A DNA stretch of 58,021 bases, filler included, from Streblomastix strix (lineage: Eukaryota), in the NCBI GenBank assembly GCA_008636045.1. It is 3 parts of 3 records of this genome, joined end to end, with 100 filler letters (N's around TTAATTAATTAA, not from the genome) between each part and the next. Parts side by side here need not be neighbours in the genome. Positions count along the whole stretch, not along the records: positions 19,384 to 38,656 come from SNRW01000527.1; 2 more parts are not named here. One strand, written 5' to 3'. Under the pieces are notes generated by a model. That model saw only the letters and a list, made by a program, of their open reading frames with translations. It was not told where the DNA came from and ran no database searches. This document shows positions 4,301-38,756 of this stretch, piece by piece; the stretch's first letter is position 1, and each line of letters starts with the position of its first letter. The position numbers and the translations under genes are program-made.

Positions 4301-5457
4301 TGTCTCAGTTGAAAAAATTTGATTTATTTTTTGGGCTATTTTTAAATTGATTGCAAATCTTAAAATATGCAATTTAAACAATTAATATTAAAATTATTTT
4401 AAATAACATAAAGTAGAAAAACTTAAAGGAGTTATATTGAATAGAAACACCCACATCATCATTATAATATTATTATATAATTAAATGTTAGAAATTAAAA
4501 AATCTCAAATGACATGAATCGGATTAAAAAATCTTTTATTTACAATTAATTTGTTGTAGTATAAACTATTAAAAAAATAATTAAATAATTAAATAGTAAT
4601 TAATTTAAATTAATTTAATTACAAATATATTTTTTTAACTTAGTTTTTAGAAACATGCCAAATATAATTATTAAATAAATGAATCATTTTCAACTATTTC
4701 TTAAATTTAATTAAAAAATATCCATTTTGCATTAAAATTTGAATTACCCAATTAAATACTCGAATGTATCAGTCCTCCCAGGGGTAGTTTATAAAATTCA
4801 ACTTAATTCTTTTTCAAAAATCAATAGTTTAAAATAACTAATAAAAAAATTTTTTTTGATTTAAAATTAATATTAAAAAATGTAAATAAAAAGAGAATTA
4901 TGAATATTTGTGAAAAGTTAAATATAAAATATATCAATTTATTAAAAATCTTATTGAAAAGTGAAAATTTTATAAATGAATGTATATGAAATAGAAAATA
5001 ATATTTTTTAATTAAATTTATAAAAAAAATTTAAATTCAAAATAAAAATATAACAATAAATAAAGTTATATATCAATTTTAGTTATTTATTAAAATACAA
5101 CAAATCTATGGATAATCTATAAAAGATCAATTTTATATTAAATATTTTATTAATTTCAAGAGATAGAGTATACAATTTTTTGAACCTATGATTTTCCGTA
5201 TGAATTTACCCTCATTCTACCACGCCAAATCACTATAACCATTAACGCATAAATTAGTCACAATCACTAGTCAAATGATATAGTCAATTTTACTTAAATA
5301 TCCGTAACGGAGAGCACTAATTTTATCCTGATAATTGGAATCATAATCCCCACAGCCAATGCATATTATTATTTTTTATGAATAGTGTATAAAAATAATA
5401 GGTAAAAATTAATATTATTATCTATTATGATTATTATTTTTTTTTGTTTCCTAATAA

Positions 5458-8400: not shown

Positions 8401-10031
8401 AATATAGCGCATGCAAATAGAGATCCAAAAATAGCATCATTACATATCAAGATGAGATAGTATGCAATTAAACACAATTTACCTATGACATTTAGTGATG
8501 AGAGAATATATAAATTACTTCGAGAATGTATTACAGGCGGTCTTGCAGCGGAATTTCATAGAGAGAATGTCGCAAGTAAGACTCATATAAATGAATTAAC
8601 TTATGATGAATAATCAAACAAAGTGATCTCATAAGATAATGAAAACGAAGTTACCCATGTATTTGCTCTTGATGGAAATAGCCTTTATCCCAGTTCATAT
8701 TCATCAGTCAAAAATGAAAATATCCCTTATACTGATCATAGAATGTATATGGCAGGCAGATCGAGATTTTATTCAGAAAAACCATATGTAATCAAAAACT
8801 GCATAGATTAGAGAAAAGAGATATTTGTAGCAAAAGTCAAAAGCTACTTTCCTAAATCAGAGTACAATAACCTTCTTCCACTTCCCCCCAATCTTTAGAA
8901 ACATTGAGATTGAAAACAAGGAAGAAGTAATTGGTGAATATATGTATTCATAAGCGCAAAACCATTCACTTCCAATGTCAAAAAAAGATAGAAAACTAAC
9001 AACATTACTCGACACTAATGGATAATATATGGTGTTTAATAACTATTATCTTTGGCTTCTTATTGATCTCGGTTTCGTGATTACTGACTACAAATCTGTT
9101 GCAGTCTTTGAGAAAAATGCGGCTTATGAGCCTTTCGTTAGAACAATGATGAATTTACGAATATAAGCTATATTAGCAGGGTCATCTAAAGAGAAATTAT
9201 ATAAACTTATAATTAACGCATCATATGGATATGATACACTAAATACAGAGAAGTTTGGAAAGATAAAGATGTTAGATAAAGCTGATACTTTCATTGCATA
9301 ACATCATCCTAATCACATTGGTATCAGAAGGATTAGTGCTAATACATTTGCAGTATAAATTAAAACTAAGACAGCGACTTGTTTTACATCAATTTAATCA
9401 GGAGTTTTTACCTTAGATAATGCGAAATATTGGTATCTCAATTATATATATAACTTCATGTATAAATGTCTAGACAGCAAACGATTTCATTTTGTTCTTG
9501 CAGATATTGATTCAATCTATATAGCAATAGCAAGAGACTCAAGTAAAGACTGTCATTAATAATTTGAATCAATAGTAACAGATAAACAGTTCTATGACTA
9601 ACATGTATACTAGTATTTACCTGATCCTAATAAAGATATCTATGACTAAAAAAAAGATACTCGGATTTGGGATTGAAAATGAAGGATATGAACTTACATC
9701 ATTAGGACCTAAGTGCTATTCAATGATTGCAAATTAATGGAACAAAGAAAAATAGCAATATGAATTTAAACCAAAAATAACATCTAAAGGAATTAGCAAC
9801 ACACAACAAATATCTCATAATGATTACGTTAATGTAATTACTAAAGATATAGTGAAGAAAGGTATTAATGGAACATTAAAAATGAACGATAATGTTATGA
9901 GCAGCATTTAAGTAGAAAAGTATGCACTAACTGGGTTCAATAATAAATCAATAGTACTTAGGAATTAATGCTGTTGTCCGTATATTAAAGGATTGACAGC
10001 AAAAGATTATTCAATCAAAGATTAATAATGA
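5458..10031 (+). pseudogene. Protein-primed family B DNA polymerase with internal endonuclease-VII-like domain (copy A)
   Basis: Motifs: ExoI NDFET, ExoII GWNSSRFD, CSIC..LDRQDN..H..NC..CVSCN, motif A DGNSLYP, motif B KLIINASYG, motif C ADIDS (DTDS mutated). Lesions: start ATG>ACG, TGA at 6361, +1 shifts at ~8886 and ~9650. Confidence 0.9.
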
Positions 10032-10062
10032 ATTATTATTATTTTTTTTATTTTAATCTAAA

Positions 10063-10473
10063 ATGGAAACCATATAGCAATATCTAACTCAAATTGATGC
10101 AAACAATAAAATGATTGAGGAATTAATGAAAAAGAAGGAGTAACTATAAGAAATTATTAATAAATAGTAATTCTCTAACGAACATCGGTTCGCTGGCATA
10201 AATGCTAATAACTATAGCCTTAATCGAAAACCAAATCATATTAGTGGTGAAATAAATAACACTTTCGGCGACATTAGAGATACCGACAACAGAGCTAGCA
10301 CTTTCATTGATATGAGAAGAATACTTAAAAATAGTATATAAAATGAATTACATTGGATTAATTGTAATAACACTAGTTATAACAGATTTCATAACGCATT
10401 AATGGAATATGATGAAATTAGATATAATTATTAGCAATAATTAGAAGATCTTCTTGATAAAATAGATGATTGA
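10063..10473 (+). CDS. Hypothetical 136-aa element protein
   Basis: Open ATG..TGA in code 6; homologue of equal length at 13000-13410(-). Confidence 0.7.
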
Positions 10474-10521
10474 AACCGTAGGTTTGAGCTCTGCTAATTA
10501 GTTTATTTTTGTATTAATGAA

Positions 10522-10665
10522 ATGACTCTCTTTGAACCACTTACTGCAAATATAACGGTCGCAATTGAAGCACTTGAATCACTCCATATTGATTGGCATG
10601 CTATTTTGAAAGCAATTTATGAGGCAGGAATCAAGTTCGCTTGTGAATCTAAATTATGCAAATGA
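10522..10665 (+). CDS. Hypothetical 47-aa element protein (MTLFEPLTAN...CESKLCK)
   Basis: Conserved with the same length at 12833-12976(-). Confidence 0.6.
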   Translation: MTLFEPLTANITVAIEALESLHIDWHAILKAIYEAGIKFACESKLCK

Positions 10666-10713
10666 ATAATTAAGTAAGATAGATATTATTTTTATTTTTT
10701 ATCTTTGAAAAAT

Positions 10714-12781: not shown

Positions 12782-12832
12782 TTATAATCGCATAAAAAAC
12801 TAAAAAATAATAATATCTATCTTATTTTTTAT

Positions 12833-12976
12833 TCATTTGCATAATTACGATTCACAGGCGAACTTGATTCATGCCTCATAAATTGCTTTCCAAATAGCAT
12901 GCCAATCAATTAGGAGTGATTCAAGTGCTTCAATTGTAATGGATATATTTGCAGATAGTGGTTCAAAGAGAGTCAT
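12833..12976 (-). CDS. Hypothetical 47-aa protein (paralogue of 10522-10665)
   Basis: Direct homology, intact frame. Confidence 0.6.
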
Positions 12977-12999
12977 TTTGATTACGAAAAATAAACGAA

Positions 13000-13410
13000 T
13001 CATTCATCTATATTATCAAGAAGATCTTCAAATTATTTCTAATAATTATATCTAATTTCATCATATTCCATTAATGCGTTATGTTCTCTGTTATAACTAG
13101 TATTATTACAATTTATATAATGTAATTCATTTTTTATACCATCTTTAAGAATTCTTCTCATATCAATGAAAGGACTAATTTCAGCATGCAAATCAAGTTT
13201 GCCGCAAATCGGAGATTTGTTCATACCATCACTACTACGATTTGGTTTTCGATTGAAGTTAAAGTTATTAAAGAATTACTATTGATTAATAATTTCTTAT
13301 TGTTACTCTTTCTTTTTCATTAATTCGTCAATCCTTTTATTGTTTGCATCAATTTGAGTTAGATATTGCTATATGGTTTGACTTTTGTCTAGATTCTTCG
13401 AATATTCCAT
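13000..13410 (-). CDS. Hypothetical 136-aa protein (paralogue of 10063-10473)
   Basis: Direct homology; contains supplied ORF 13039-13224. Confidence 0.7.
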
Positions 13411-13437
13411 TTTAGACTAAAATAAAAAAATAATAAT

Positions 13438-16400
13438 TCATTAATCTTTAATAATATAATCATTTGCTGTTAATCCTTTAATATAAGGGCAACAACATTA
13501 GTTCCTTAACACTATTGATTTTTTATTGAACCCTGTTAGTGCATATTCTTCAACTTAAATGCTACTCATAACATTATCGTACATTTTAAATGTTCCATTA
13601 ATACATTTTTTCACTATATCTTTATTAATTACATTGACGTAATCACTATGAGATATCTACTATGATTTACTAATACCTTTTGATGTTATTTTTGGTTTAA
13701 ATTCATATTGCTATCTCCCTTTACTCCTTTTGAGTACAATCGTTGAATAGCACTTAGGTCCTAATGATGTAAGTTCATATCCTTCATTTTTAATCCCAAA
13801 TCCAAGTATCTTTTTATAGTCATAGATATCTTTATTAGGATCAGGTAAATACTAATATATATGTTAGTCATAGAACTGTTTATCTGTTACTATTAATTCA
13901 AATTATTAATGGCAGTCTTTATCAGGATTTCCTTCTATAGCTATATAAATTGAATCAGTATCTGCAAGAACAAAACGAAATCGTTTACGGTCTAGATATT
14001 TGTACATAAAATTATATATATAATTGAGATTCCAAAATTTTGCATTATCTAGTATAAGGACTCCTGATTAAATTGATGTAAAACAAATTGCTGTTTTAGG
14101 CTTAATTTATACTGCGAATGTATTAGCCCTAATACGTCTGGTACCAATGTGATTAGGATGATGTTATGCGATGAAAGTATCAGCTTTATCTAACATCTTT
14201 ATTTTACCAAATTTCTCTGTGTTTAGAGTGTCATAGCCATATGATGCGTTATTTATTAGTTTATAGAATTTCTCTTTAGATGATTCTGCTAGTATAGCTT
14301 ATATTCGTAAATTCATCATTGTTCTAATGAAAGGCTCATATGCCGCATTTTTCTCAAATACTGCAACAGATTTGTAGTCAGTTATGATGAAGACAAGATC
14401 AATAAGAAGCCAAAGATAGTAGTTATTAAACACCATAAATTATCCATTAGTGTCGAGTAATGTTGTTAATTTTCTATCATTTTTTGACATCAGAAGTGAG
14501 TGTTTTTGCACTTGTGAATACATATATTCCCATATCACTTCTTCCTTATTTTCTATCTCATTATTTCTAAAGATTGGTGGAAGTGGAAGGAGGTTATTGT
14601 ATTCTGATTTAGGAAAGTAGCCTTTGACTTTCGCTACAAACATATCCTTTCGCTAGTCAATACAATATTTTATTACATATGGTTTTTCTGAATAAAATCT
14701 CGATCTGCCTGCCATATACATTCTATGATCAGTTTAAGGGATATTTTCATTTTTGACTGACGAATATGAACTGAGATATAGACTATTATCGTCAAGAGCA
14801 AATACACGAGTAACTACGTTTTCATTATCTTATGAGATCACTTTGTTTGACTAATCATCATAAGTAATTTCATTTATATGAGTCTTACCTGCAATATTCT
14901 CTCTATGAAATACCGCTGCAAGACCACCTGTAATACAATATCGAAGTAATTTATATATTTTCTCATAACTTATTGTCATAGGTAAATTGTGTTTAATTGC
15001 ATACTATCTCATCTTGATACGTAATGATGCTATTTTTGGATCTCTATTTGCATGCGCTGTATTGCATGAAACACATGCAGGCAAATAGTTATCTTTAGTA
15101 TGAGGAAGTTCATTGTCTTATCATTCTAAACTCGGAGGGTTATCGTAAGTAAATTTAGCACTACAAATGGAACATATTGATGTTTCAAATAACCTCTTAT
15201 AATAATCATAATCATCAGCTGTTACATTTTTCTCTGTTTCTCTACCTGCTTTATAATCTTGTTATTTATAGTGATAACATTTATTCTTCCAATACCATGC
15301 TGTTAATGCAAAAGGTTTCGCATTAGGATTTGGACTAGTGTAGTCAGCATTTATATCGAAATCTTCATAATATGCTTGTTTATCAATTTCAAGATTGAAT
15401 TTAGAAGGGAAATATGTTGAATAGTGCTTCGTTGCATACACACATGAAGTAATTGAAATATAGTGCAAAACATCAATATTGAATTATTCAAATGTATCAA
15501 TCAAATTCATTAATGGCTTAACCATAATCTCTGTATCATTAATATTATAATACTTGAGGTATTCTAATCTGTTGGTGAATCTCCTGAAATCATTCAAATA
15601 TTAATCATACTCATCTTTAGTGATAGAATAACCACCTTTGAGTTATGATTTGAAATCTTCATATTCAAATGGCTCAATTTTCATTTGTACTTCGTTCCAG
15701 TTCTTTGAATTAATAATTTCATAACGAAATACATCTTTATGCTCAGTTTTATCTCCATAATCTTTTACGCAAGCTTTTAATGTCATAGGACCAAATAAGT
15801 TCTCTGCATCAATAAATTGTAATTTTATGTGTGACTTCTTGTGTGTTACTGTAATTGATTTAGTATTATTGAGATCACCATTAGGAATACCCATTGTCCA
15901 AAATTCACAATCTAATGCATCCCGTAACAGAGCGATATCAAATCTTGAACTATTCCATCCCAGTACTTTAACACATCTGTCAAAAAAGATATTTTCATAA
16001 CTCTTTGAGTCAGAATGCAAAGCATTATCACTATACTTCATACACTAATATATCTATTCTGCTGATTCGAATGTTTATGCAAGCCGTAGATGAACAAATG
16101 ATGAATTGGATGGCAATCCATAATTTTCTAATTATTCTTAATAATTCTCAGATAATTCATCGAATAATGTATAACATCTCTTAACTAATTCATATGATTT
16201 ATCTTAGTTTGGATATACTTCCGTTGATGCAATTGATAATTTAGATAATTATGAGAGTAATGTTGTTTAATTTGTTATATTTTTCATAACCTAATCACTT
16301 AATGTTTCAAAGTAATATGTTATAAATCCTCGCTATGCTTTAAATTAATCCATTAGTCCATAAGCCATTAAGTACTCTGTAGTAGGATGATTTAATATTG

Positions 16401-18037
16401 CGGGACATATAGGCATTGGAACATCATGTAATAAGATTGATGGTTCATGAGTTGATAATTTACATTTTTCTACATGAGTGTTGAAATATTCATTAGCTCT
16501 CTTGTTAGTATTAGATAATATTGTAACATAATCATGGCAGTGAGGGCAAATAAGAACACCTGTCAATTTTTCAACATTAGATACATACATTACATGCTGT
16601 TCACTTCCATCACTAATGAGTAATAAGTCAAATGTCATTGATTCATTATTAAGATATCCATATGAATTAAATAGCCTATATTAACCTGTTTTTCCCTCTA
16701 ATTTTTCATGATAAATGTATATATTTACTACAAGGTTAAATGTATCAGTAAAATGAGTCATTTCTATCGAGATATTGAATCCCTTATAATCAATTAAATA
16801 TTTGTTAAGAGACTAGTCTTTCTTAGCCTTATCATAATATAAGTACTCAAACAGTTGATATTTACCTTTAATTCTGTAGTAATATGCGAATAATTGTTTA
16901 GCAAATGAAATTACTAAATGATGATCAACTTTTTTGTCAATTTCACTTCTAATTCTATAGGATAGTGCAATAAAGAAATATATTTAATAATCTGAATCTA
17001 AATAATGAACTGAATGCTATTTAACATGTTTATCAAGATATGGCATTCTTGCTCCAGTATCTATTAACTTATAAGTAGCGAACATTACGTTAAATATACC
17101 AACTATCAGATTTGTAGTGTCTTCATATGTCCGTTCCATCAATTCCCTTAACAGTTTAAACATATCTACTTTGAATTATTCTAGTGATTTCTTGTCACTT
17201 ACTGTTGATTATTTATGTTTGAAAGCATTATCTAGTGAAGGAATTCTGCATGAACATTTATAATTATTTCCATCAAGTTTTTCTTATATTTGAACTCCAA
17301 AATCAATTTGAACTATAAATTGAAGTCCTTAGTACGAATCATATACTTTATCCGCATTTTATGACAGTTGCTCTTACTGAGTTAGTTTATTAAAGTAATG
17401 AAGTTTATAAGTAATTTCATCATAAACAGCTTCAGCAATTGCTTCACTATTTTTGATTTTAACTACTCTTTTTATTACTTTAATTGCCTCCTCTTCAGTT
17501 TCAACATCACATAATTGTAATGCTATTTATGATAATTTATTTACCCTTTTTTAAATTTTCAATTGTTGAAATTGCATTTGAGATATCATCCTCATTTTCC
17601 ATCAATTATTTGTTAAGATTACGTTTATATTTAATGATTTTGTCTTTATGTATCCTATCAACATCAAACTGTTTAACTTTGAATTAATCGATAATAACAT
17701 ATACTCTTAATCTCTATTTTGCTTTATTAATTCTATCAGTATATATCCTATCATCATCGAATTCATTAATGAAAAGTTAATGTTAGCTATCTTACAACTT
17801 ATCTATGAAATCTGATTAATTGACATCATTTTCTTACATAAGTTATTGAAATGGTTATCTTAATTATTGCTCAAGAAATTGTTTCGCATTATCGAAGTTT
17901 GTTCTACTTCCTGTATAATTTAAATCCTTTAATTTAGTTACTAATTCAGTATATATTGAACCATATTTCTCTGATTCATTGATTGGTCTAACAATAGCCA
18001 TTAATTAAAAAATTTGTGGTTTTGTTAACTTAGACAT
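13438..18037 (-). pseudogene. Protein-primed family B DNA polymerase with endonuclease-VII-like domain (copy B)
   Basis: GWNSSRFD, KLINNASYG and ADTDS present; motif A decayed (DDNSLYL). +1 shift at ~17550 and TGA at 15121-15123. Four supplied ORFs share this frame. Confidence 0.9.
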
Positions 18038-18362
18038 TTATTAGGAAATAAAAAATAAATAATAAATATAGATAATATTACACATGTGATTTTTTGCATC
18101 GGACTATAAAAAAATAATAATATGCATTAGTTGTGGAGATTATGATTCCAATTATCAGAACAAAATTAGTGCTCTTCGTTGCGGATATTTAATTAAAATC
18201 GTCTATGACATTTGACTAGTGATTATGATTGATTTTAGCGTTGATGCTTATAGTCATTTGGCGTGGACGAATGAGGGCAAATTCATACGGAAAATCATGG
18301 CCTCCAAATTTTTTATACTCTATCTCTGACATTTCATTAAAATATAAATAAATCCAAAAGAT

Positions 18363-19283: not shown

Positions 19284-19383
19284 NNNNNNNNNNNNNNNNN
19301 NNNNNNNNNNNNNNNNNNNNNNNNNNNTTAATTAATTAANNNNNNNNNNNNNNNNNNNNNNNNNNNNNNNNNNNNNNNNNNNN
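19284..19383. other. Artificial contig spacer
   Basis: 44 N + TTAATTAATTAA (standard-code stops in six frames) + 44 N. Confidence 0.97.
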
Positions 19384-19669: not shown

Positions 19670-19721
19670 TTTATAGCCAGATAAAAAATTAGAAAAAAAA
19701 GAGAGGTGCGAAAAACCTTTT

Positions 19722-19886
19722 TTATTTTTGTCGAGGTGACTCCCTAAATTAACGATACCTAAAAAATAACACATTATTTTTGTCGAGGTGACTCCCTAAA
19801 TTAACGACACCTAAAAAATAACACATTATTTTTGTCGAGGTGACTCCCTAAATTAACGACACCTAAAAAATAACACATTATTTTTG
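19722..19886. repeat. Tandem repeat, 3 x 52 bp
   Basis: Unit TTATTTTTGTCGAGGTGACTCCCTAAATTAACGAYACCTAAAAAATAACACA; GTCGAGG at 19730, 19782 and 19834. A diverged inverted copy lies at ~22755-22815. Confidence 0.95.
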
Positions 19887-19928
19887 GGTCAGGCCTAAAA
19901 AGGGTACCACCGAAATTTCGGAGATAAA

Positions 19929-20945
19929 TCAATTCTATCGTTTTAACACATCGAAATTATTAAGTGATTTATTTACAATGATAAATTCATATTTCTATAG
20001 ACTGTTATATATAATTATAAATTCCTGCTCGTTTAATGCCGAGACATTGTTTTCCTCGTATATTTATTTCAAATCTTACTCGGCTATATTAGCACCTACA
20101 GCTATCACATGGCATAACACTCTTGCTGACCTGAACAGATATTACGGTCGTTAAGCACAGAAGAAGATGGTATTTTTACTATGTCGACTGTCACTAACTA
20201 AATGGGTTATCGATCTAGCTAGTTCACTAGTATATCTTTATATATCAGTATTTGATCCGATATCATCGAATATCATTAATGTGGAAAGTAATGCTGCGCT
20301 TGCAAATATAGGAATTTTTATAAACTCCTGTTCACCATCTTGCTCTATTATTTTTAGCTTCTTTGAATACTATACACCTTTAATAATAGATGGAAGATCG
20401 AATCGCATTAGCGTACTAGGCTAACTATATTCGTTTATTATTTTGATACACTCGGATTAGAATATATCAGATAGCCTATGTCGGTATTTTTTATCTGTAT
20501 CATCTCTTTTCTATTTGTTATTATCTACAATCGTTACTTTCATACGTGTAATATAATCCGAGTCATAATTAATACCTTGTTCTTTTAATTTCCAATAAGT
20601 ATATACTTCTTTAACCTTATATTTAATCTCATCAAATTAAGGAAGAAATGATTAAGCTTCTGCGTATGTTATATTGATTAATTTTATACCTCTATTATTT
20701 AAATTAATAGCCATTGTTTCATCAGGTCCAAAGTTAGAGAAGTATAATATATATGGGTGAATGTATCGCTAGTATAATACTATTAATTTAGCCATTAATG
20801 TCGTTTTACCACTTCCCACTGAACCCACGATATAATGATTGGCATTAATAAGAAAGATAGAATGAGGAGCTAATGGTCTTATCTTATACTCTTCTAATAG
20901 CGATTGATCATCGAATGATACTTAATTAATTTATTGGAGGGTCAT
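19929..20945 (-). CDS. A32/FtsK-HerA-type DNA packaging ATPase (338 aa)
   Basis: Intact frame; Walker A GSVGSGKT, Walker B LMIFDD, then SDSRH and FFCAQ as in A32-like ATPases. Confidence 0.88.
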
Positions 20946-22650: not shown

Positions 22651-22881
22651 TTATATTGATGGCAAAAAATAATAACCGTAGATTAACAGATATAGATCAA
22701 TTAATATGTCAGAGCCTAAAATAAATCAATTAGTGTACTCTGTAGAAACTGACCGACCCCAAATTAATGTGTTATTTTTTAGGTATCATTAATTTTAGGG
22801 GTCAACTCGACAAATCTATTTTTAAAAGAGAGGTGCAACTTGCCTTTTTATTATTTTTTCACAATAAGTCAATTTTTTTCC

Positions 22882-23702: not shown

Positions 23703-24266
23703 ATGGATAAGTCGTAAGCGTTAAAATTTATGATGGAAAATGATACTAATATTGAGTACTTTGATGGTGGATATTTTATTCGAGATAAGAAACAAATCAA
23801 GTGTTTTGAAAATGGAAAACGAGGACTTAAATTAGTGACACAAGCTTAACAAAATAAGCTAATGATGTAGGCTAAAGGAAATAATTAGCACAAGAAATAG
23901 CCAACTAAAATGTTTGAATCTGACTCTGATGAAAGTGATAATTCTGTTGACGCTATTGAAGAAGAGTAACCTAAGCCAGTATAAAGGGTTAAAAGAAAAG
24001 TATAAAACAAACCGTAAATCAAATACGTTAATCCGCAACTTGATTTTGAAGAGCTAATATCTTTGCGAACTGAAAATAAATATACAAAATAATAACACGC
24101 AGATATGGTTAAATAAAACGAGAAATATAAAAATAAACTGAAAGCGTTAAAATAACCTAAGCCTAAATAACAACCTAAGTAAATAGAGTAAGAAGAAGAA
24201 TAGGAGGAAGAGGAAAAAAATGATTAATGTGTTCCTTAATAATATAACTACTATGATGTATATTGA
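23703..24266 (+). CDS. Hypothetical charged/coiled-coil viral protein (187 aa)
   Basis: Continuous ORF MDKSQALKFMMEND...YDVY* with acidic and K/Q-rich tracts. Confidence 0.65.
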
Positions 24267-24506: not shown

Positions 24507-24944
24507 TCAAATTGATGCCAATGTATAATAATTACAGAATAGTTTGTTATCATCCTCAGTAACAAATGTGTTATATATCTATTTTTCTTCATCCTATGCC
24601 TCAGTTAATATATACTATTTCAGTTTGTTAATTTACTGAGCTTAAGCAATATTTAGCTATTTATACTAGTTATATTAATCAATATGTGTGTGATTATTTT
24701 AAGTATAAATTTTATTAAAGTATTGCTCTTACTCTGCTTACTTATTAAAAAATTACAATTTAATTTAATAGATATCGAATTATTATTTTAGCTTTTTTAG
24801 CTCTTACATTAACGGGTTCACTAATTGCGGGGGTTATAATAACTCCTTCAATTATTATATTATTTATTATATCATATCTTCCTGTATATTATTTTTGGAT
24901 AATTGTTTAATTAATTACTTCAGTTATATTATTAGTGATTCCAT
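24507..24944 (-). CDS. Hypothetical Q-rich coiled-coil protein (145 aa)
   Basis: Continuous ORF MESLIIQLKQL...YTLASI* with TAAATG start. Confidence 0.5.
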
Positions 24945-25007
24945 TTATAATAAATAAAAATAGCTAATTTTATTCGCTAATTCCCATAAAAATATTCACA
25001 CACTAAT

Positions 25008-25199
25008 TCACTATATCATATTTTTAGAATGATGTATGTAATCAATTGGCTTTGGCTATATATGTGTCGGCTTTATAATAACAGCATCACTTCTAATTTA
25101 TGTTGAGGATAGAAATTTATTAAGTAATTTTGGGACGTAACCCGTGGCTTATTATACACCACTTAATATTTTAGAGCCAAAATTCTTGGTGCTAATCAT
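25008..25199 (-). CDS. 63-aa paralogue of the amphipathic peptide gene
   Basis: MISTKNFGSKILSGV...LLNKFL shares KNFGSK.L.GV and NKFL with 25349-25552. Confidence 0.5.
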
Positions 25200-25348
25200 T
25201 TATGTGCAAAAATAATGTCATAAATTTCATGTAATAATTGATGAGATTAATTTACACACTATTTCAGAAATATAGGAAAGGCAAGTTGCACCTCTGTTTA
25301 TTTTTGGGCTGGCTCAAATTTGAGCTGGTATCAATCATTTATTATATA

Positions 25349-25552
25349 TCATCGATTTAAAAACTTATTTGCCATACCTGCTGCTCCACCAACTCCTCTC
25401 GCAATCATACCCGCAGTTGGATTAATTGCGCCTATTGTTGGTGCAACTGCTCCCATAACTTTATGAAGAACTGGCGCTACCCATTTAGCTGCAGATGTAA
25501 CACCATGCAATACTTTTGAACCGAAATTCTTTAATGAACTCCAAAATCCCAT
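25349..25552 (-). CDS. 67-aa amphipathic, putative membrane-penetration protein (adenovirus pVI-like N-terminus)
   Basis: MGFWSSLKNFGSKVLHGV..; cationic, G/A-rich, no acidic residues; ends in TGA. Confidence 0.7.
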   Translation of the reverse strand: MGFWSSLKNFGSKVLHGVTSAAKWVAPVLHKVMGAVAPTIGAINPTAGMIARGVGGAAGMANKFLNR

Positions 25553-25585
25553 TTATTGATTTAAAAATAATTTTCATAAAACGAA

Positions 25586-26158
25586 TCATTCATAATTTCC
25601 ATTCCTTAATTTGTCGACATATACTTTCAATTATTTATGTGTAATATCATAACATGAAACATATTAATAAGCGTAAGCGTCATTTTTCACATTAATGTGA
25701 AGCTTTCTAAATTTTAGCCCATTGTGGAAATATACATTATATTCTTAATCAAAACTATATCCCTCTAAGTCATACCCATTATATAATATAAGCGGTTAAC
25801 TATTTTCTGGTAGTTCGTCAAAATATTCGTATTATATTTTTCCATGATTAGTTCTGTTCTTTGAGTTCTCAATATTTGTTGTCCATCGGAGATTTTCTAT
25901 TCTATTATCATTTTTGATACGATTAATGTGATCTACTTGTGGTAAATTATTAGGATTCGGAATAAATTAAATAGCAATAACTCTATGATGTTTATATTTT
26001 TTTCCATTCAGATATATTTAATTATATCCTGTGGAATTATCAAACGTTATTTTTGGAATAAATTAATCCGCAATTCTTCTTATCGTATGTGGTTCTTCAG
26101 TTAATATTTCATAGTTATTATTAACAGTTAATATTTACCATATATTTAACTCTACCAT
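25586..26158 (-). CDS. HNH endonuclease, intact (190 aa)
   Basis: HHRVIAIQFIPNPNNLPQVDHINRIKNDNRIENLRWTTNIEN. Confidence 0.9.
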
Positions 26159-26225: not shown

Positions 26226-28184
26226 ATGAGTTTTGGAGCACAGGATTACCTTGCAAGGCTATCGAAAGCATCACATTCGGATTATGTTTCTTCATATTCG
26301 GCTCTTAATGAAGTAATGCGGACGTTGACTATCGAACCATAATCATTCCATCTATCAAAATAATAATTCGAAGACTAACCTGTTAATACATTGTTTTCTG
26401 GTGGTACAAGATAGACACGAGCTCCTCTTGGTGCTAGGGGTTCAGCCACCTGTTGCTGTGTTTAAACATGTTAGGTTAACTGGACAATTACTATATCCGC
26501 TAACACATTGGGTATCCAGCTCAATTAAGTTAATCAAACTAAAGGAGGAAATACTGACATTGAATTTGCCCTATAATTAACTAACTTTAATGGAACAAAG
26601 ACAGCAGCTGCACCATTGCCTGCAGATAGATTGATTGCTCAAAACACATAAAAATATAATAGCAATGAAGTACTCAAATTTTGGATCGGCTTCTCAACAG
26701 CTTGTGGACCTTTCTAATAAGTTGCTATATGTAAATAAAATACAAAATTATGGGAAACTTCCATTTACGCTCGCGAATAAGCTATCATCTGTTCTAATTC
26801 TTTATCTGACCTAACAGTTAATAATTCCGTTACTGTCTCACTACTTGAAAGTATAACTTAAGGGAAACGTCATTGTGGAGTATTTATTGATATACCATGT
26901 AGTAAAATTAATGCCAGTACTGCTGACTACTATTATAAAATACCAGATCCCATTACTTTTAGTGATGTATTGGATCTCAATTAACTGAACCCGATATTTA
27001 ACGAGTTTCCTGTACTAATTAGAAATTATGCCAGTCTTTTTCTATAACTGTGGATGACTGATTTCCTATAAGATTTAAAAATAGTATGGTTAAATAAAAC
27101 AATCCCTCTATTCGATCAACATCTTGCTTATACAATGATTCCACCAGAGAAACCAGATATAATTATCCTAATGACTAATGACGCAGATATTGAATATAAA
27201 TAATACTCTGTACGAATGATTAATTGTAGAGATCTAGAAGCAGATTCAACTGACCCAAAAAATAGTATATAATAAATAGACACCGCTTACTTTGAATATT
27301 TATCGATCCATAACCTTTGCTTTACCATGGAAAATGAATAGGCAATTATCGATATGATTAGGGCACAGAAAGTAATACATTTCCCTACCTAAGTTATTAA
27401 ATCACAATCATTTAATTACACCATGAACAATTTTGAGCCATCCAGTGGGTAAATATAAAGTATAATGTCGTTTGCTAATATCAAAGCTATGTTCATGACG
27501 TTTGCGATGCCGTAATATCCCACATGGTTCTTTCCCATGTTACTCCACAACATAGACTTAATAATTGATTAACGACATGCTGTTCCTTTCCCTTACGAAG
27601 CACATACTCAAGCTACAAATGGCTCAATGTTTTAGTGTTTTGTTGATTAAGATGTTATATCACCATCTAGCGATTTGTATCATTCTCTTACCTTCGAAAA
27701 CATCAACATAAATGATAAGAGATATAGTTATGGGAAAAATGATGGTGCTACTAATGATATAGATAATGTGTTCTATAAGACTACACTATTTGTTGGTTCT
27801 AAGGCTGTTAAAACATACTATCCTAATAAATATATGCTCGCATGGAAATTAGCTACTGATGATTCATTTATGCGCGGATTTAATAGTACTAGAATTGGTG
27901 CGAGAACAGATATATAATTAATGTTGCATACACAGATTATAACTGGAATTGTTGATAACCATAAAATTAATGATGATACTATTCACCCTGAGAATTAAAA
28001 TACATTAGCTGGGTTTATAGGTACAAGAAGTTATCCCATGAGTTGGTAAGTAGGTTAGACCCCCATGTTTCATTATCTGTGTGACGCGGTCATTAGAATC
28101 ATGTTTGATGATAACCCCGAACCCTAGGTGTTAAATCTGGAGGTTATCGGTGAGATTAGCGGCAGTATGATTACTGCGGGATGA
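26226..28184 (+). CDS. Putative major capsid protein (652 aa, double jelly-roll inferred)
   Basis: Long intact code-6 ORF containing supplied ORF 27675-27917. The capsid call rests on size, composition and location near the packaging ATPase, not on a diagnostic motif. Confidence 0.65.
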
Positions 28185-28331
28185 TCTTACTATTTTTCCA
28201 TCGTTAATGAAGATTGATTAATTTCCCAAAAAAGTCAACCCTGATAATTATATCGTTAATTCAAAAAATAATAAAAAGGCAAGTTGCACCTCTCTTTTAA
28301 AATTAGATTTGTCCAATTACACTAAAATTAA

Positions 28332-28958
28332 TCATATATAATATTTGTGAAGAGGTGACCATTTAAATTTAGATTCTTCTATTTAAAATATATATTCATT
28401 GAAACATTATTTGTTTTCATCAATCATACTCCTTAATCTATTTTCATTGAACTCATTACGTTATTTTTCATTTGTTTCTAGAATGTCATCATATATTTTT
28501 CTGAACTCTTTATATTAATATGATGTTAGTATTAACATTTATTTACCACAATAAGGTATTAGATCTCCTCTATCATAACTTAAGTTACCTATTACATCAA
28601 AATTAAGTGAATATTCATAGTATGGGCAATGTGGCCAAGATTACATTTATGTTGCGTAAAATTAATTATTAAAAGAAAGACTAGAGGTAAAATTATGACC
28701 ATATTCTATTTCAAACATACATTCATCATAACATTATTTATTTTTATAAATCATTCTCGTTAATCTATTTTCATTGAACTCATTACGTTATTTTTCACTT
28801 GTTTCAAGAATGTCATCATATATTTTTTTGAACTCTTCATATTAATTAACAGCTAATATTAATTTATTATCTGATAATAATAAGTCTCCTATATCGTAAC
28901 TTAATCTAGCTACCATATTACTATCTAATGTATATTCATTGTATGAACAATATGACAT
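28332..28958 (-). CDS. 208-aa protein made of two ~100-aa repeats
   Basis: YEEFKKIYDDILETSEKQRNEFNENRL and YKEFRKIYDDILETNEKQRNEFNENRL in one frame; the DNA duplication is visible at ~28433-28520 and ~28760-28847. Confidence 0.65.
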
Positions 28959-29150: not shown

Positions 29151-32100
29151 TCATTCAGCGGAATCATTTATAGGAGGTTAAAGATCTACATAATTACTAG
29201 CTGATAATTAATAGATAAACGGTGCTGATAATTAACTATTAGGCAAAATAATACCTTTAGTGTGTACGCCTGTCAGAGCATTTTTTGTTTAAGTTAATTT
29301 TGCCATTACCCCATCTTTTTATCCCAGTCGCATATTTTCACACTTCATTATATTTCCACCGATACAATCAATTATATTCTACTTAGTTATAATATTCTAC
29401 TTCTGATTAACTCCCTTCAATTTAATTATTTAGTCAGCAACCGTGTTAATATAATAATTCTTAGGCGAGACAGCTATCATTATATCACCTTCCTTTTCGA
29501 TTGATAGCCCTAATAATTTCTTTTGTTCTTTTAAGTTGCTAGTTGTAGGAAAATAATACTTATAATTATCATGGTAAAATTTCTAATCGGTTATTATATA
29601 GTTAAATCCTTAGCTAGTTGGTTAATTAATATCCCCTGCTACTGCAAAGTACATCGAGTCCGTATCACCTTCAATAAAATGAAACCTATTTCTATCCAAA
29701 CATTTATAAAGGAAATTATATATAAAATTAAGATACCAATACTTAGCGTTATCTAGTGTAAAATAAGCTTCTTATAGCGGAGTCATACATTTACATCTAT
29801 CTGTGTTTAACTACACGGCATAAAGGTCATCGTTTAACTATCGCTCACTCATAAAATTACCTGTCAAGTGAGTTATTAAAGTATCAGCCTTTGACTTTAG
29901 CTTCACATTACTAAATTTCTCGATATTCATCCCATCAGATCCATAACTAGCGTTCATAACTATCTTACAGAATTAGCTCAACCCTTTGTTATTAGCTTCA
30001 ATAGCTTATATTCTCCTGTTCATAAAAGTGTTAACAAATCCGTTAAATCTATCGTGCTTAGTAAAAAGAATGAGCTAATTTATATCATCTATAACAAAAT
30101 GACACGTGTCAATTAAAAACTATAAATAATAACTAGAGAATGACATGAATTGATCGTGAGTAGATAACAACTGAGTTAGCTTCCTCTCATCTTTATCTAC
30201 TTTTATCCCATTATCTTTCATAAAATTATAGGTATATTTACCTATTACTTGTTCGCTAGTAACATATGATATATTCCTAAGAATAAGCGGAAAATTAATA
30301 CAATCATTTATATCTTCAATGTGCCCCTTAATTGTTGCGATGAATAATTACCCTGCTATTGTATATCTTACTGACGAATTAATAATATTCATACACCTCT
30401 CTTTTTATATATCATTTTCCACGTTAATTACTTCTTTTACTGTACCAGCCATATACATTTTACCACCAGTATATGGACATAGTTAATTATGTTAACTACT
30501 CATTACACTCGGATATAATGAATTAAAATCTAGCCCTATTATATTAGTGACTATATTATCTGTCTCTATTACTTTCACTTTACCGTCATATTATATAGTA
30601 ACAACATTATCTGTCTCGATTACTTTTACTTAACCATCATATTGTAATCTCTTAATTTTTGTCTGACCACGTATATTTACCCGATTCATTACATTTGATA
30701 GCCCACCAGTTATTCCATTCCTTAGCGTTTAATATACTTGCTAATTGTTAATTATTGTAGGTAAATTATACTTGCTACAGAATTTCTTTAACTAGATAAG
30801 TAATTTCATCTCTTACTCATTTCTATTTCCTTTCGTTGAATTACAATATAAACAACACTATCTAACATTATCTTTAGTATGAGGTATTAAATTATCGATG
30901 CGATCTAATGTAGGTCTATTTTTAAACGTAAATTGTTCGTGACAAATAAAACAAGGCTTTCTCATTAGCTATTGAAAATATTAATAATCATCAACACTTA
31001 CGTTATTAGCCACATCTCTTTTCGCTAGTAAGTCTTGTTATTTATATCCCAACACTTTAATGTTCCAATATTATGGAGTAAGGTAAAATGGTGGATTAAA
31101 TGTTGGGTAGTTATAATTTCCATCTATACTAAAATCATTATAAGCTATTGAATATTTTATAGCGTTAGCGCAACTAGCCATTGATATATGTTATAACATA
31201 TCAACCTTGTATTCGAAGAACAGGTTAATTAATATTTATATAGGTGCAATCATAATCTAAGTATCTAGTATATTATAATGTCTTAGATAATCCCATCTGT
31301 TATTAAATTATTTATAATCCTTGAGATATAATAAGTAATCTTGATCGGAAATACTAGTATTTTTCAACGTGTTATTGTAATCTGATTATTAAAATGGGCT
31401 CTTTTTAGATAATTGCTCATCATAATCATCTCCCATTAGATCATAGGGAAATAACCCCTTAGACTATTATTAATCCGAAAAATTCGCTACAAATTAGTCC
31501 AGTGCCATTGGGGGTGCGACATATAAAAAAGCGTCTAGAAATTTGAGCGATATACTCATATTATTATGCGATACAATTAGCTACTTACACATTTGTGGTG
31601 ACCCTATATAATTAGTTATTTTCCATTAGCTCGATAACATATATGGAAAGAGTAATGACATATCAAATTTAGCAGAGTTATATCCCAGAACAGGAACATC
31701 AATTGAATAAGGTATATTTTCATCATCGTAATTATTATCTTTCTTTATTTATACTGCTTCTGCAAATAGTTATTTTATCCATTGGTTAATGAAATCTGTT
31801 TACCTAATATCATAATAAATAGATTTAATACCTTTGGATGAATGGATGGTTGATGCCACACTTAGTGGTATGAGTTAGCTTATTATCTTACTTTCTTTGC
31901 CAAATTTTGTATCAACTTTGTGCTCATAAGTTTCAAAATCATAAGTAATAAAATATTACGTCGGTTTAAATTCATTTTATCTACCCTAAGTAAGTAAATA
32001 CCGATAAGTCTTATTTTACATTATGTGGGGAACAAATGGTCTTTGTTAATCATCAAGATAGACTTATTTCACTATTTTCCCCTTACATTTCTTAATATGT

Positions 32101-33449
32101 CTATCCATAGTCTCTTTAGTATGTTAATCTTATTTAAAGCAGTGATTCTTGCAAATAGGGCAGAATAATAATCCAGTTAGACGTTATTTATCTGTTACTA
32201 GTAATGTATGAATATTTATACCATTTATTTCCTCTGATTAGATAAGTAGCAAATTAAGCTCATCATCTCCTTCGATTGGAAATGATTAAGATAAGAAATA
32301 ATGAAAAGACTTATCATCCTACTAGTATGAAAAGAGATTAACTGATAATTTTAGATGATCATGGATTTTCTATATATCTGTTGCGTAATTGAATCCCTCA
32401 AATGTCTTAGGGTTAAAGTCCTTGTAAAATAAGACGCCAATTTCTTTCATTTTATGAAGAACTTGACTGTCACTATATCTTTTCTCCTTAGTATCTTTTA
32501 GCAAATGTCTAGCTATTGCTTCTAGTACACAAGTATTAGGATAAGGTGAATTGATAAATCTGAGACATTAACGTTTTTTTGACAAATGTATTTTTAAACT
32601 CGGAATAGACTTACCACTGATTGGAAGGAGATAGGTCATTGCGCAGATAGAATAAACAGCTATATATTTCTATTTTGTATCGATTAGGGTCTTTTCCTAA
32701 ACAGATATTATAACTGACTAGATATATTCCTTGTATAGTTCAATATCTTGTTGAGTTCTTATTAATAATGGGGCTCTTCTTTCTGTCATTGATTCTCTCG
32801 GGATAATATAACCGTATGTTATTTTTATATCATTATTCTTATCTCTATCTTTTCGCTCGTAAATGAAGCCAAAGTCGATTGCTAATTTATAGACGCTATG
32901 AGCCATATTAATGTGAATTTGATCAATGAAATTATAGATATCTAATACGCTAGTTATATTATTGCTATAGTGAACTGTGGTTATTGGACTGCGTTAGATG
33001 TGATTTTAATCGGAGAAATTAGATTTGGCGTCAAGGAGAATTCTAGTGAAATCATCTAGATCGTGAGGTTGAGTTAATAATAATACTCCTTCGTTTATTA
33101 TTTTAAGTAGCTTACGTTCTTTTGTAGACTCTATCTGTTGTTTGATTTCTAATAGTTACGGTTAAAATATATACTGTAATTGCTACTCTAATTATTATTG
33201 TATCTCGTTAAAGTTCTCTTGATGAGTTGGAGGTTAACGTACATAGAATTAGTTATCTAATCTAGCGTCTAAGTCAATCATAAATTATCTGAGGACATTA
33301 TAGTTATTTCGTGAGCCTTTTGCTGGAAAGTTATTTTTATCAAGTGCACGTTTTAGTTGTTACTTTAACTATTCACGTGTCTTTTTTTCTTATAGTTGGG
33401 GTGATATAATTCGCAATAAATTTAGCAGCTCCTTTTTAGTTAATACCAT
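29151..33449 (-). CDS. Intact protein-primed PolB with internal endonuclease-VII-like domain (1432 aa)
   Basis: Read through with no TGA or shift: CPIC Zn motif, YDFET, GYNSAKFD, KGLFPY, YNILD, CFIC..LDRIDN..H..NV..CCLYCN, DFNSLYP, KIVMNASYG, GDTDS. An in-frame upstream ATG exists at 33581. Confidence 0.93.
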
Positions 33450-33636
33450 TTTATCTTACGTATAAAAAATGATTATTTCATGAAGAGTTGATGAGGATAT
33501 AATAAAGGTTAATATCTAGTCGAATTATTTTTGTAATTTTATGAAGAGATAGAGATTACGGATAGTGTTTTTATTAGCCATTTATCGTTAGAAATCTATT
33601 TTTTAGTCGAATAGGGGAACTGATTTATTATACCCA

Positions 33637-34282: not shown

Positions 34283-36395
34283 ATGGCATAACTGGCAAAT
34301 AACTTTGAAGATAGTAAACTCATTGAATCAATTATGAGCGAATCAACTGAAAAGAATATTAAATGTGTGACACTTGAGAAAGGATCAAAAAGACAATATA
34401 ATTGTAAGTCAAAAACATATGAGAAAACTAAAGCGTTAATTGATCAGATGATTAATGAATAGACTAATGAACAGACAAATGAACAGACAGATGAATAGAT
34501 AAATGATTAAGAATAAACTAAAGAGTAATCCGTTCCCTAAAGTGATTATGATGTATTCTCTGAAGTATTTTCTGAATGTTTCACTAAAGTTAATGAAATA
34601 ATATATAATCCAAAACTATCAAAAAGAGAATTGATGGTGCAATCATTGATTTATATGAATATCGAAAATTCGCTGATCCTAAATTAAAAAATAAATAATT
34701 AACAGGATATGTTGTTTATTTGAGTTTGCGAAAAGATGATAATTTATGTATTATTGATTTTGATATTGATCATGCAGGCAAATTGAATGAGGAAGAGAAA
34801 GAGAAAATACGATAAAATATAATCAATAATATGCTTCCAAAAAATGTTGGTTTAGTCGTAACTGCATGAGGTGGAATACATGCTTATTGCAATAGGAATG
34901 GATATAAATTAACTACAAACAGAAATGAGAAAGTGAGAGTATATGATGATAGTCATGAAATTGATATCTTTGCATAGATGTACACACATAAAGATGGTGA
35001 ACTAGTAGCGAATCGAGTTGTACTACCAAATAGCAAAGTAAGAATCATGGAAAAAGGAGTCTAGAAAAAAGAGATACTTCATTATAAAAAACTTAATGAT
35101 TGGTCTAATGCTCATCATCAAGCATCTTTGCATAATATTCTTGGTCATTGGAATGTTGATCTATCTGCAAAAGATGATGATATTTCGAACACCGTTTCAT
35201 AAGATTGTACATATGAAGCAATGACAATTGAAATAGTTGATGCATGTATATAAAGTTTGAAACGATTAACTATTCACAATGATACAAACACATTAGCAAG
35301 AGAGATTAGTTTGCTTCCAGTATTCATGGGACTAAACGGATTAGAATAAACGAAAGATAAATAATATAAAGAAGATGCCTACATAACTGTTTATAGAAAT
35401 AATATTCTGACACCTAATGCAAATGAACATTGGAGCGATAGAAAAGGAAGATATTCCAGTAGAGCTAATGCATAGATACTAACGAAAATTATTAAACTTC
35501 ATAACAAAGAATACTATGAAACAACTTTTAAACATTTGCACAAAAAGAGATTACAAGATAAACATAAATTAAAGCCTGAAATAAAATTGGAAATGATTGA
35601 AAAATAAGGATCTGACATCAATGATCCATTCATATTTGGAAACATAAGTGAAAAAGCAACAAGAGGAGAATATAAAGAAGAAGCAGATATTGCGACTGAT
35701 TTAACTAAGGTAATTAGATACTATGCTGGTGAATCTGAATTAGTGTTAATAATCAAAGAATATGATGCTTAGTAAGAGACTAACGTAATACGCTATAAAA
35801 CAAAGACAAACGCATATGAATAAATGCACATAATTAGATTAAGGGATGATGGTAAAAACATATAACAGTATAAGATATTTTCGAAAAATATAGTAGATAA
35901 TATGTTGTTGAAGGAGTTAGATTCAATTCATATAATCCGAATGTATTCAATGTCTTTCAAGGATATAAGTATGAAAAATTTGAATAAGTTGAAGAATCAA
36001 AGATAAATATGTTCATTAATGATCTGACGTATGGAACAATAGCAGGAGGAAACTAAGAGGTTTTTGAATATATTCTTAATTGGATTGCATTCATTGCTTA
36101 AATTGCAGGATAAAAAACTAGAACAGCTATCATTTTTCAAGGATTATAGAGAATTAGTAAAAATAGATTCACAGATGTTATTGCAGAAATTTTTTCACGT
36201 TATAGCCTACCAAATATATCAATAATTGAAGAATTTACAGGAATATTCAATTTAGTTGTTGAGAATGTAGTGTTTGCTGTTCTGAATGAAATGATGAATT
36301 ATAACGAACCCAAGAAGGGTACTGCCTAGATAATGAAGACGATAGTTACTGATTAAACAATAAGAATTAATAAGAAAAATTAACCAAGAAGACGA
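34283..36395 (+). pseudogene. Primase-polymerase (AEP-type) / SF3-like helicase, 3'-truncated
   Basis: IIDFDID, TA*GGIHAY (TGA 34867), NRVVLP; then FNVFQG, YILNWIA, eroded Walker A QGLQRISKN, VLNE, RINKKNQP. Frameshifts at ~34612 and ~35856. Confidence 0.8.
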
Positions 36396-37974
36396 GCTGA
36401 AACAGATAATTAGACTTGGGGATTGGGGCACTTCACTAGACCTCTCCTCCGCATTTCACCACCTAATAGTCCTAACAGAATCACAACCATACCTAGCATT
36501 CGAGTTCCAGAACAACCACTACACATATAGAGCTATGCCATTTGGAACCAAACACTCATCAATATACTTCGCAACAGCAATGGAGCAAATAATGCAACAA
36601 ATAAGAATGAAATCCGAGATTAGAATAATCAATTACGTCGACGACATCTATCTCCTTCACCAAAACTAGGAGTATCTGAAGAACATGACTTAGAGAGTAA
36701 TAGACACACTGAAATACTTCGGATTCACAATAAACACAGAAAAGAGCGAGACAGAACCAAATCAAATAGTAATATTTCTAGGATGGGAATGGAATCTAGC
36801 CAATGCAACAGTCAAGACGAAACCGAAGAAGCGATTATTTCTTCTACACGATCTATACAATACGAGAAGTTGGATAAAGACAGGAACAGAGACAACAGTA
36901 AAATAAACAGCTAAGTTAATAGGAAAACTAAACTATCTAAGACTGTAATTTTAAGAAGCCTCACTCTTCCTGAACATAATGGACCATCAGAAAGCATAAG
37001 CAGCAAGACTGAGAGGATGAAATACAACGATGATAATGAACAAGACTGCAATTCCAGATATAAATTGATGGATAGCGAAACTCAGAGCGAACATTCCAGG
37101 ACAATTAATATAGATATCACCATAAATGAAAATGACAACAGATGCAGCACCTAGTAGATGGGGTTCTAATCAAAAGAAGGAATCGGAAATGACTGCAATA
37201 TCTCATGGAACTTGGAATAAAAGATAAGCGAAGTTAATAAGTAACAGCAGAGAAGCTAAAGTTATAACTTAAAGCTTGCGAAGTTTCGCCAAAATCTTAA
37301 AGAATTCGCGAATTCAATCCCTAGCGATTAGAAGTGATAATAGTACAGCAGTTTTCGACATTTATAAATGGAGAACATCAATATCATTAATAAAGGAAAT
37401 TAAACATGTACACTAAACAATAGAAAAGCTAGGAATTTAGATCCAGATTACTCACTTCCCAGGAGTTAAAACCGAAATGGCAGACGCACTAAGTAGATTA
37501 TCAAGAGCAGGAGACTATTAACTAAAGGAGAAAATTTTTCGACAGACATGTCTTCAGATGAACTTGAAACCAACAACAGATTTATTCTCACAACACTTCA
37601 ATTATCTACTGCCAAGATTCATGTCAACAATAGGAGGACACAGAGAAATAGCAATCGACGCTCTCAATCAAACATGGAAGAAGGAACTATCATGGATTCA
37701 TCCTCCTATCCCTCTCCTTCCAGCAGTTCTGAAGAAGATCAGAGAAGAGCAGATCGAGACAATGATAATAGCTCCACTATGGCCAGGCCAGATATGGTAC
37801 ACAGAACTGGTAAACGAGAATGCTCGATCCCTTATGCTTGATTGGAGCAACGAATTTCTGGAACCAGGAATATCGTTAATTAAGAAGAATTTGAAACTCT
37901 TTCCAGGCAAGATATGTTGTTTCCTGATGGACCGAAGCCCAGAAAAGCGAGAAGATTCACAAGAAATATTTTGA
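36391..37974 (+). pseudogene. DIRS RT / RNase H / adenine-methyltransferase-like polyprotein
   Basis: LDLSSAFHHL, YRAMPFG, YVDD; TDAA, RSDNSTAV, ADALSR; DLFS, WIHPP, APLWPGQIWY. TGA at 37018 and 37066 at probable Trp positions. Confidence 0.9.
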
Positions 37975-38006
37975 GAATACTAAACGTTTCCAAGGCAGCA
38001 ATAGAC

Positions 38007-38656
38007 ATGATTTTATATGGATAAAGATACAATACTTAAAGGAGATACTACTATGCAATGGAAAAACTTAAGAAATGGATCCAAATCAATCACTACACAA
38101 TACTTGATTTATTAACAATGAAGCCACACATCATTATAACAGAGGTACTAGCTTAATTCACTTTAGTAAACACTTCAGCAAGCTCAGCACTTCAGTTTCT
38201 TAATGGACTCTCATCAATGCTCTCACTCACGTTCGAAATAGATTTAAAGAATAACCACATGCTCCAATTTACTAAGAAAGCAATCTCAGCACACATAGTC
38301 GTCAAACCAAAATATGAAGACAAATGGAACGTGGTAATACTATTTGATTATTGGAGAGGAAAAGGATCGAACCGAAATTTGACAAATGTTGAACTGTAGA
38401 CTAAACTCACTTCACTCCTTATGACTATCTATTCAATGAGACCAGCCGAAATCGAAGGAATATCACTAAGACACACAGTAATTTGCGAACAAACTGACAA
38501 AGTAGATTTACGACAACAACCGAAAACAAAGTCTGGACTTCACTCACACAAACTTCCAAAGACTAGAGATCGAACTGTATGTCCAAGAGCAACATTTTTT
38601 GATTGGCTGAAAAGAATTGATAACAAACATGGTCGATCCATCAGAGATAATAAGTA
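38007..38656 (+). CDS. DIRS tyrosine recombinase (partial)
   Basis: PKY..W, KLTSLL..SMRPAEI, PKTK, VCPR; joins supplied ORFs 38217 and 38421 through TAG=Gln. Confidence 0.8.
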
Positions 38657-38756
38657 NNNNNNNNNNNNNNNNNNNNNNNNNNNNNNNNNNNNNNNNNNNN
38701 TTAATTAATTAANNNNNNNNNNNNNNNNNNNNNNNNNNNNNNNNNNNNNNNNNNNN
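38657..38756. other. Artificial contig spacer
   Basis: Identical N44-TTAATTAATTAA-N44 structure. Confidence 0.97.

Follow-up and report, generated by a model that had tools for sequence, protein, structure and literature searches.

Genes and features of the locus

Two small open reading frames, ORF A (25349-25552) and ORF B (25008-25199), lie on the minus strand near a capsid gene in the middle contig of the window, the whole stretch of 58,021 nucleotides of Streblomastix strix DNA that was analysed. Three contigs make up the window; the N spacers that separate them occupy 19284-19383 and 38657-38756. It contains 10 ORFs of at least 90 aa under translation table 11, and its longest open frame extends over 152 codons under table 1 versus 1511 codons under table 6, which reads TAA and TAG (TAR) as glutamine. 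Since open frames are far longer under table 6 than under table 1, table 6 is taken to be the code of the region. The middle contig carries a polinton-like virus whose host, going by the labels of relatives, is probably an oxymonad, a protist likely to live in the termite gut. It shows the features of the Metamonada group of such elements: a divergent capsid protein (its fold being weakly supported), a packaging ATPase, a family B polymerase and TAR codons specifying glutamine. The endogenous polinton-like viruses of this group use the code of their host, in which TAR means glutamine (PMC10120064), and the group remains unplaced (10.64898/2026.06.19.733378).

The 652-aa product of the plus-strand gene at 26226-28184 is the probable major capsid protein, of double-jelly-roll type, according to the labels of its relatives and to weak fold matches. 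It has 188 relatives, and the 120 listed are all labelled Streblomastix strix, several of them as major capsid protein. A structure model built from a 54-row alignment is of low confidence (pLDDT 49; 30 for the single-sequence model). Hexon, D13, PBCV-1, Sputnik and mavirus capsids make up most of the best Foldseek rows of the alignment-based model, and no row reaches E≤0.001. The ORF stops at 652 aa, with neither a peptide tail nor a helix motif. A P-loop ATPase found by Pfam and PHROG searches (19929-20945, minus strand) is the probable packaging ATPase of the same element. The family B DNA polymerase gene (29151-33581, minus strand) matches PHROG DNA polymerase (E 4.5e-11) and endonuclease VII (E 2.3e-14), the endonuclease VII/HNH domain being inserted at about residues 853-937. 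No protease gene was recognised in the element by a motif scan, which is a weak test.

Several further features were noted. A 17-base intergenic motif occurs in three exact copies in the element, at 22829-22845 (plus), 25279-25295 (minus) and 28277-28293 (minus), the second of which falls between ORF A and ORF B; looser copies are found near 19697 and 21442. It comprises a hairpin of 6-8 bp before a U-rich run, folds no better than shuffled sequences, and is a possible transcript end signal. Near the contig end, a 52-base tandem repeat is present three times (19722-19890), with a partial inverted copy 3 kb inside the element (22755-22814). The 208-aa ORF behind the capsid gene contains an internal duplication of 159 bases (28377-28535 and 28704-28862, 86%). 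On the plus strand, a hydrophobic frame at 24780-24960 has the look of a small membrane protein; the minus frame facing it is rich in Gln. At 36009-38656, Pfam detects a DUF5906 helicase-like ORF broken by reverse-transcriptase fragments, which we take to resemble a DIRS-type retroelement. The first contig bears an inverted duplication of about 5 kb (5136-10669 versus 12829-18350, 83-92%), spanning a frameshifted polymerase-B-like gene.

ORF A encodes a 67-aa cationic peptide that is likely to be an internal, membrane-active virion protein. Its translation is the same under tables 11 and 6, it has a net charge of +7 without a single acidic residue, and its sequence shows no sign of a signal peptide or precursor. 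Residues 2-37 (25442-25549, minus strand) are predicted to form an amphipathic helix with an unbroken hydrophobic face (moment 0.41, peaking at 100 degrees). The moment is 0.49 for residues 3-20, a value reached by 100 of 2000 shuffles. The amphipathic character of the peptide thus exceeds chance expectation for its composition only moderately. Both the peptide quoted in the preliminary description of this DNA and its characterisation as a cationic amphipathic helix hold, the latter at about the 5% level by shuffling. An N-myristoylated, Arf-like helix was considered and rejected, Gly2 not being invariant (18 of 25 full-length members, with Ser in 4). Among language-model neighbours in the ESM Atlas, the nearest named cluster is Cecropin-A (0.78, a lead only). 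A 310-member Atlas cluster of 92-aa proteins scores 0.89-0.92; its commonest record is Parabasalia (3 records), and it could possibly represent relatives in elements of trichomonads.

ORF B, of 63 aa, is open only under table 6, with five TAR codons read as glutamine. The peptide first quoted for it is indeed present on the minus strand; that quotation ended before two TAA codons, beyond which the ORF continues in table 6. ORF A and ORF B align over 30 residues with 47% identity (pairwise E 6e-8). The helix core is kept in ORF B, while the Phe-Trp start is gone and the C-terminal half differs, forming a proline-rich tail. Its best 18-mer has a moment of 0.50, which 178 of 2000 shuffles reach. 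TAAATG is the start context of both ORFs and of 9 of the 14 candidate starts inspected in the element; neither ORF has any Pfam or PHROG match.

The ORF A family and its linkage to the capsid gene

From its sequence conservation, ORF A is a real gene family with dozens of relatives. All 33 candidate relatives proved genuine, 32 of them labelled Streblomastix strix, and a profile gave 63 matches among 1.84 billion proteins, 60 of which are family members by inspection. The remaining three (P0038, P0073 and P0094) are repeat-driven matches and were set aside. P0073 and P0094, which score weakly against the profile, look like secreted precursors in which amphipathic helices recur, separated by basic sites; they are unlabelled, and presumably fungal. 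Substitutions were taken from contigs of four runs, belonging to two studies, aligned to the region; of the 9 in ORF A among the 40 of 205 rows listed, 7 are silent. The best conserved residues are F3-K13, the part that matches the lytic helix of adenovirus protein VI (pVI), the basic or glycine-rich remainder being less so. The commonest 9-mer of the family is carried by 14 of 29 members.

In this copy, the capsid gene starts 674 bases from ORF A, on the other strand, and an HNH endonuclease gene (25586-26158, minus strand; Pfam HNH_3, E 1.2e-9) lies between them. Nineteen of 92 retrieved gene models fuse the peptide with capsid-gene sequence, 18 of them on the capsid antisense. Two contigs depart from the window just upstream of ORF A (at 25567 and 25574); beyond that point their letters match the capsid start, and in the gene model P0049, likewise, the region upstream of ORF A runs directly into the capsid start. 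The fused models and the contig ends indicate that ORF A normally stands head-to-head with the capsid gene and that the HNH gene is an insertion here. Moreover, four peptide/capsid pairs have consecutive locus tags on contigs that, by eye, are equally long. The closeness to the capsid gene that had been pointed out initially is therefore borne out across copies.

A metagenome pattern search gave 391 matches, of which two were confirmed. One (L001) uses the standard code and encodes a 74-aa relative that follows, at a distance of about 290 bases, the C-terminus of a related capsid protein (pairwise E 1e-4); in the other (L002), no capsid gene is present within 1 kb. Conservation in related elements thus extends from the dozens of family members to one distant standard-code element. 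A second gene seemingly common to the window (23703-24266) and L001 did not hold (E 0.013, low-complexity). The capsid query and the broad profile A3 yielded no locus in IMG/VR. In another subfamily (P0057, P0062-P0065, P0067, P0069 and P0074), the models fuse the peptide with long, repeat-rich, fibre-looking sequences, which suggests that a fibre gene is the downstream neighbour there; these sequences gave no informative Pfam or PHROG match.

Helix motifs in protein VI, virophage capsid tails and a phage protein

The lytic helix of pVI consists of residues 34-54 (PMC8156859; PMC8310329, PMC5425241). ORF A residues 3-14 (25511-25546, minus strand) align on pVI residues 40-51, where PDB chains carry the very motif that the preliminary description had quoted, and also on the starts of virophage capsid tails. 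When ORF A residues 1-23 were compared with 177,635 PDB sequences, all six matches at E≤10 were pre-protein VI, at E values of 0.21-2.7 (17-37 for the best single stretch) that are not significant, the 23-residue query having moreover been trimmed after the fact. The commonest family 9-mer is identical to pVI in 3 of the 5 alignments shown; since helix motifs recur, a chance estimate for it based on independent letters was not counted as proof. Other searches of the PDB were less favourable. Full-length ORF A missed pVI, its sole match being a synuclein, and the broad profile A3 missed it too. A narrow profile found it at E 1.2 and 2.1, as the third and fourth of four matches, behind two unrelated ones. 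None of 16 family members matched Pfam PF02993 (MCPVI) at E≤10 with the HMMER filters on. No canonical protease site, (M/I/L/N/Q)xGG-x or xGx-G (the hyphen marking the cut), is present in ORF A or B, and PPxY is absent from all 19 sequences scanned. The resemblance to pVI is therefore specific, but short and not significant, and ORF A is not classed as a pVI member because every other feature of pVI is missing. Of the original proposal of a pVI-like peptide, what stands is that the N-terminal 23 residues match pVI alone in the PDB; the E values and the unmatched MCPVI family do not carry it further. That description took in neither the TAR code of the region nor the virophage tails, nor the earlier proposals of such proteins in animal polintons.

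A second likeness came from virophages. In an IMG/VR pattern search, one of 88 matches was confirmed, a virophage (L003). Its capsid protein can be aligned with the mature Sputnik protein over the full length of the latter, and the motif follows directly on this mature part. Pfam MCPVI gave no candidate in this record. A search with a core capsid motif gave seven virophage loci, two of them already found and one identical to Sputnik V20 over 192 residues. All seven tails open with an amphipathic stretch behind GG, and the Sputnik tail reads much like the start of ORF A. Virophage capsid tails are cleaved off, and an endosome-rupturing helix has been proposed in the first fragment, which was undetected in virions (Born et al., PMC6048507). 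A profile of nine virophage tails gave 9-15 bits to 5 of the 13 family peptides, 2.5-6.3 to the others and no more than 2.6 to eight decoys; hhalign against the family profile gave 87%, but only 43% with virophage tails found without selection on the motif. Little of the score comes from the part beyond the motif, since between 19 and 262 of 500 tail shuffles reach it. pVI is not among the matches of the virophage-tail profile.

A tailed phage provided a control for convergence. The virophage capsid has no match in the phage collection. A tail protein of a tailed phage (L004:3825-3902) has the same 8-residue core within an amphipathic stretch; lying in a tailed-phage module, it was rejected as a relative and retained for this purpose. 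Against the family profile it obtains 18.3 bits, more than the virophage tails do (3.5-14.1); with hhalign it reaches 95%, equal to the motif-selected virophages. It does not retrieve pVI from the PDB. In pVI, in virophage tails and in ORF A alike, as judged from the sequences, no more than a dozen or so residues separate the motif from the mature N-terminus. One may imagine a single ancestral lytic helix of eukaryotic double-jelly-roll viruses that was kept in three architectures, namely pVI, the virophage capsid tail and a stand-alone, protease-free gene of metamonad-type polinton-like viruses, duplicated here. We lean somewhat against this idea, and hold it as tentative, given that the family profile scores an unrelated phage tail protein equally high. 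If the three helices are related, the entry helix would predate the split between adenoviruses, virophages and polinton-like viruses, and if common ancestry is true, the ORF A peptide would be a minimal ancestral form of the adenovirus entry device.

Possible roles and comparison with known systems

The reading that we favour, with rather more confidence than doubt, is that ORF A encodes a peptide housed inside the virion and made without a precursor, with the likely function of breaking membranes during entry. It would be co-expressed with the capsid protein from a common divergent promoter region, and its positive charge and hydrophobic face may hold it on the inner capsid face or on the DNA until uncoating releases it. 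As with pVI, the N-terminal helix would then enter and break the endosomal membrane, with Phe3, Trp4, Leu7 and Phe10 inserting shallowly into the bilayer. ORF B is a duplicate in which the core of the helix persists, while the aromatic start has gone and a proline-rich tail has been added; it is probably an accessory virion protein and not the main lytic one. Since the motif is already N-terminal in ORF A, no maturation cut would be needed, in contrast to the proteolytic release seen in adenoviruses and virophages, and the failure to recognise a protease gene or a canonical site in ORF A is consistent with a ready-made peptide.

The same lack of precursor and protease can be turned the other way, as it leaves no obvious shield for a lytic helix in the producing cell. 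A and B might instead be internal cement, scaffold or DNA-condensing proteins, with the hydrophobic face on the capsid and the basic face on DNA, and break no membrane. Capsid linkage and the charge of +7 fit this explanation equally, a role chiefly in scaffolding and in tethering DNA has been proposed for the mavirus capsid tail (PMC6048507), and ORF B is under selection despite its missing aromatic start. Against a purely structural role, conservation culminates at the residues matching the pVI lytic helix and not in the basic or glycine-rich remainder, and the language-model neighbours that have a family are the cecropins, a lead only. We regard this explanation as rather unlikely.

The cecropin neighbourhood would also suit a convergent, antimicrobial-peptide-like helix acting outside the virion, for example in host lysis at release or on neighbouring microbes; the likeness to pVI would then reflect convergence between short helices of amphipathic type. 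The same motif does occur in an unrelated phage tail protein and, weakly, in the secreted repeat precursors P0073 and P0094. We find this improbable: ORF A has no visible signal peptide or precursor, its gene stays adjacent to the capsid gene across subfamilies and in the distant standard-code element, and in virophages, helices of this kind belong covalently to the capsid protein.

For ORF B, 16 of the 24 listed substitutions are silent (22% expected), none creates a stop and no indel is listed inside the frame, which indicates purifying selection on it. The plus frame sharing its third positions has 14 of 24 silent changes. These changes are not mutually independent, so that the strand of ORF B rests on its homology to ORF A and its start context. 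A stand-alone ORF B was not retrieved: its three matches are each a hybrid gene model that fuses the second half of A to B. These hybrids, together with P0039, suggest that ORF B follows ORF A in other copies. That ORF B is a decayed duplicate of a real ORF A, or that the selected frame is the one on the plus strand, would agree with the hybrid models and with the silent changes of the plus frame, and is nevertheless very improbable given the uninterrupted frame, its own silent changes, the homology to ORF A and the TAAATG context. The earlier identification of ORF B as a diverged paralogue is thus upheld, by homology and by selection alike.

On the favoured reading of ORF A as an entry peptide, the gene bears on how non-enveloped polinton-like viruses cross membranes. 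A gene of 67 residues that selection has maintained next to the capsid gene, in dozens of endogenous copies, also argues that these elements form infectious particles. The idea of pVI-like and venom-like helices is not new here, as it has already been put forward for animal polintons. Cupiennin, PLA2X and GasderminX have been proposed, by remote similarity, as membrane-active virion accessory proteins of adintoviruses, the animal polintons, and one map of a MELD virus shows a 'VI'-like gene (PMC8502044); LO6 of adomaviruses gives moderate matches to pVI (10.1101/341131). These proteins come mostly from animal-associated lineages, and none was retrieved by name in the searches made here, so that they are likened to ORF A by description only. 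Unlike the ORF A/B pair, no duplicated pair in metamonad elements appears in the available portions of these accounts (PMC8502044; 10.1101/341131). In the open-licence literature, we found neither an account of the ORF A family nor any sequence connection drawn from pVI to virophage tails and, in the literature surveyed, no accepted relative of pVI outside its own family.

The element itself is closest to the Metamonada-group polinton-like viruses, with which it shares the host label, the reading of TAR as glutamine and a divergent capsid protein confirmed only by modelling (PMC10120064; 10.64898/2026.06.19.733378). The accessible parts of both accounts mention no small virion peptide such as ORF A or ORF B. 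With pVI, ORF A has in common a near-identical motif of 9-12 residues close to the mature N-terminus, and the two are alike in being small basic proteins whose genes lie near the capsid gene of a double-jelly-roll virus. It is 67 aa long versus about 250 for pVI, and is devoid of the 33-residue propeptide, the C-terminal protease cofactor and the PPxY motif of the latter. The virophage tail is fused to the capsid protein and freed by a cut after GG, whereas ORF A has a gene to itself, on the strand opposite to the capsid gene; profile similarity between the ORF A family and virophage tails is modest (43-87%). Like the C-terminal fragment of the virophage major capsid protein, ORF A would be a basic amphipathic helix of about 50-60 residues that starts with F-(F/L)-S-x-(L/F)-K-N-F and is broken by proline later on, and for both ORF A and the virophage fragment (mavirus MCPC1, or the 87-residue tail of Sputnik), the proposed role is the rupture of the endosome (PMC6048507).
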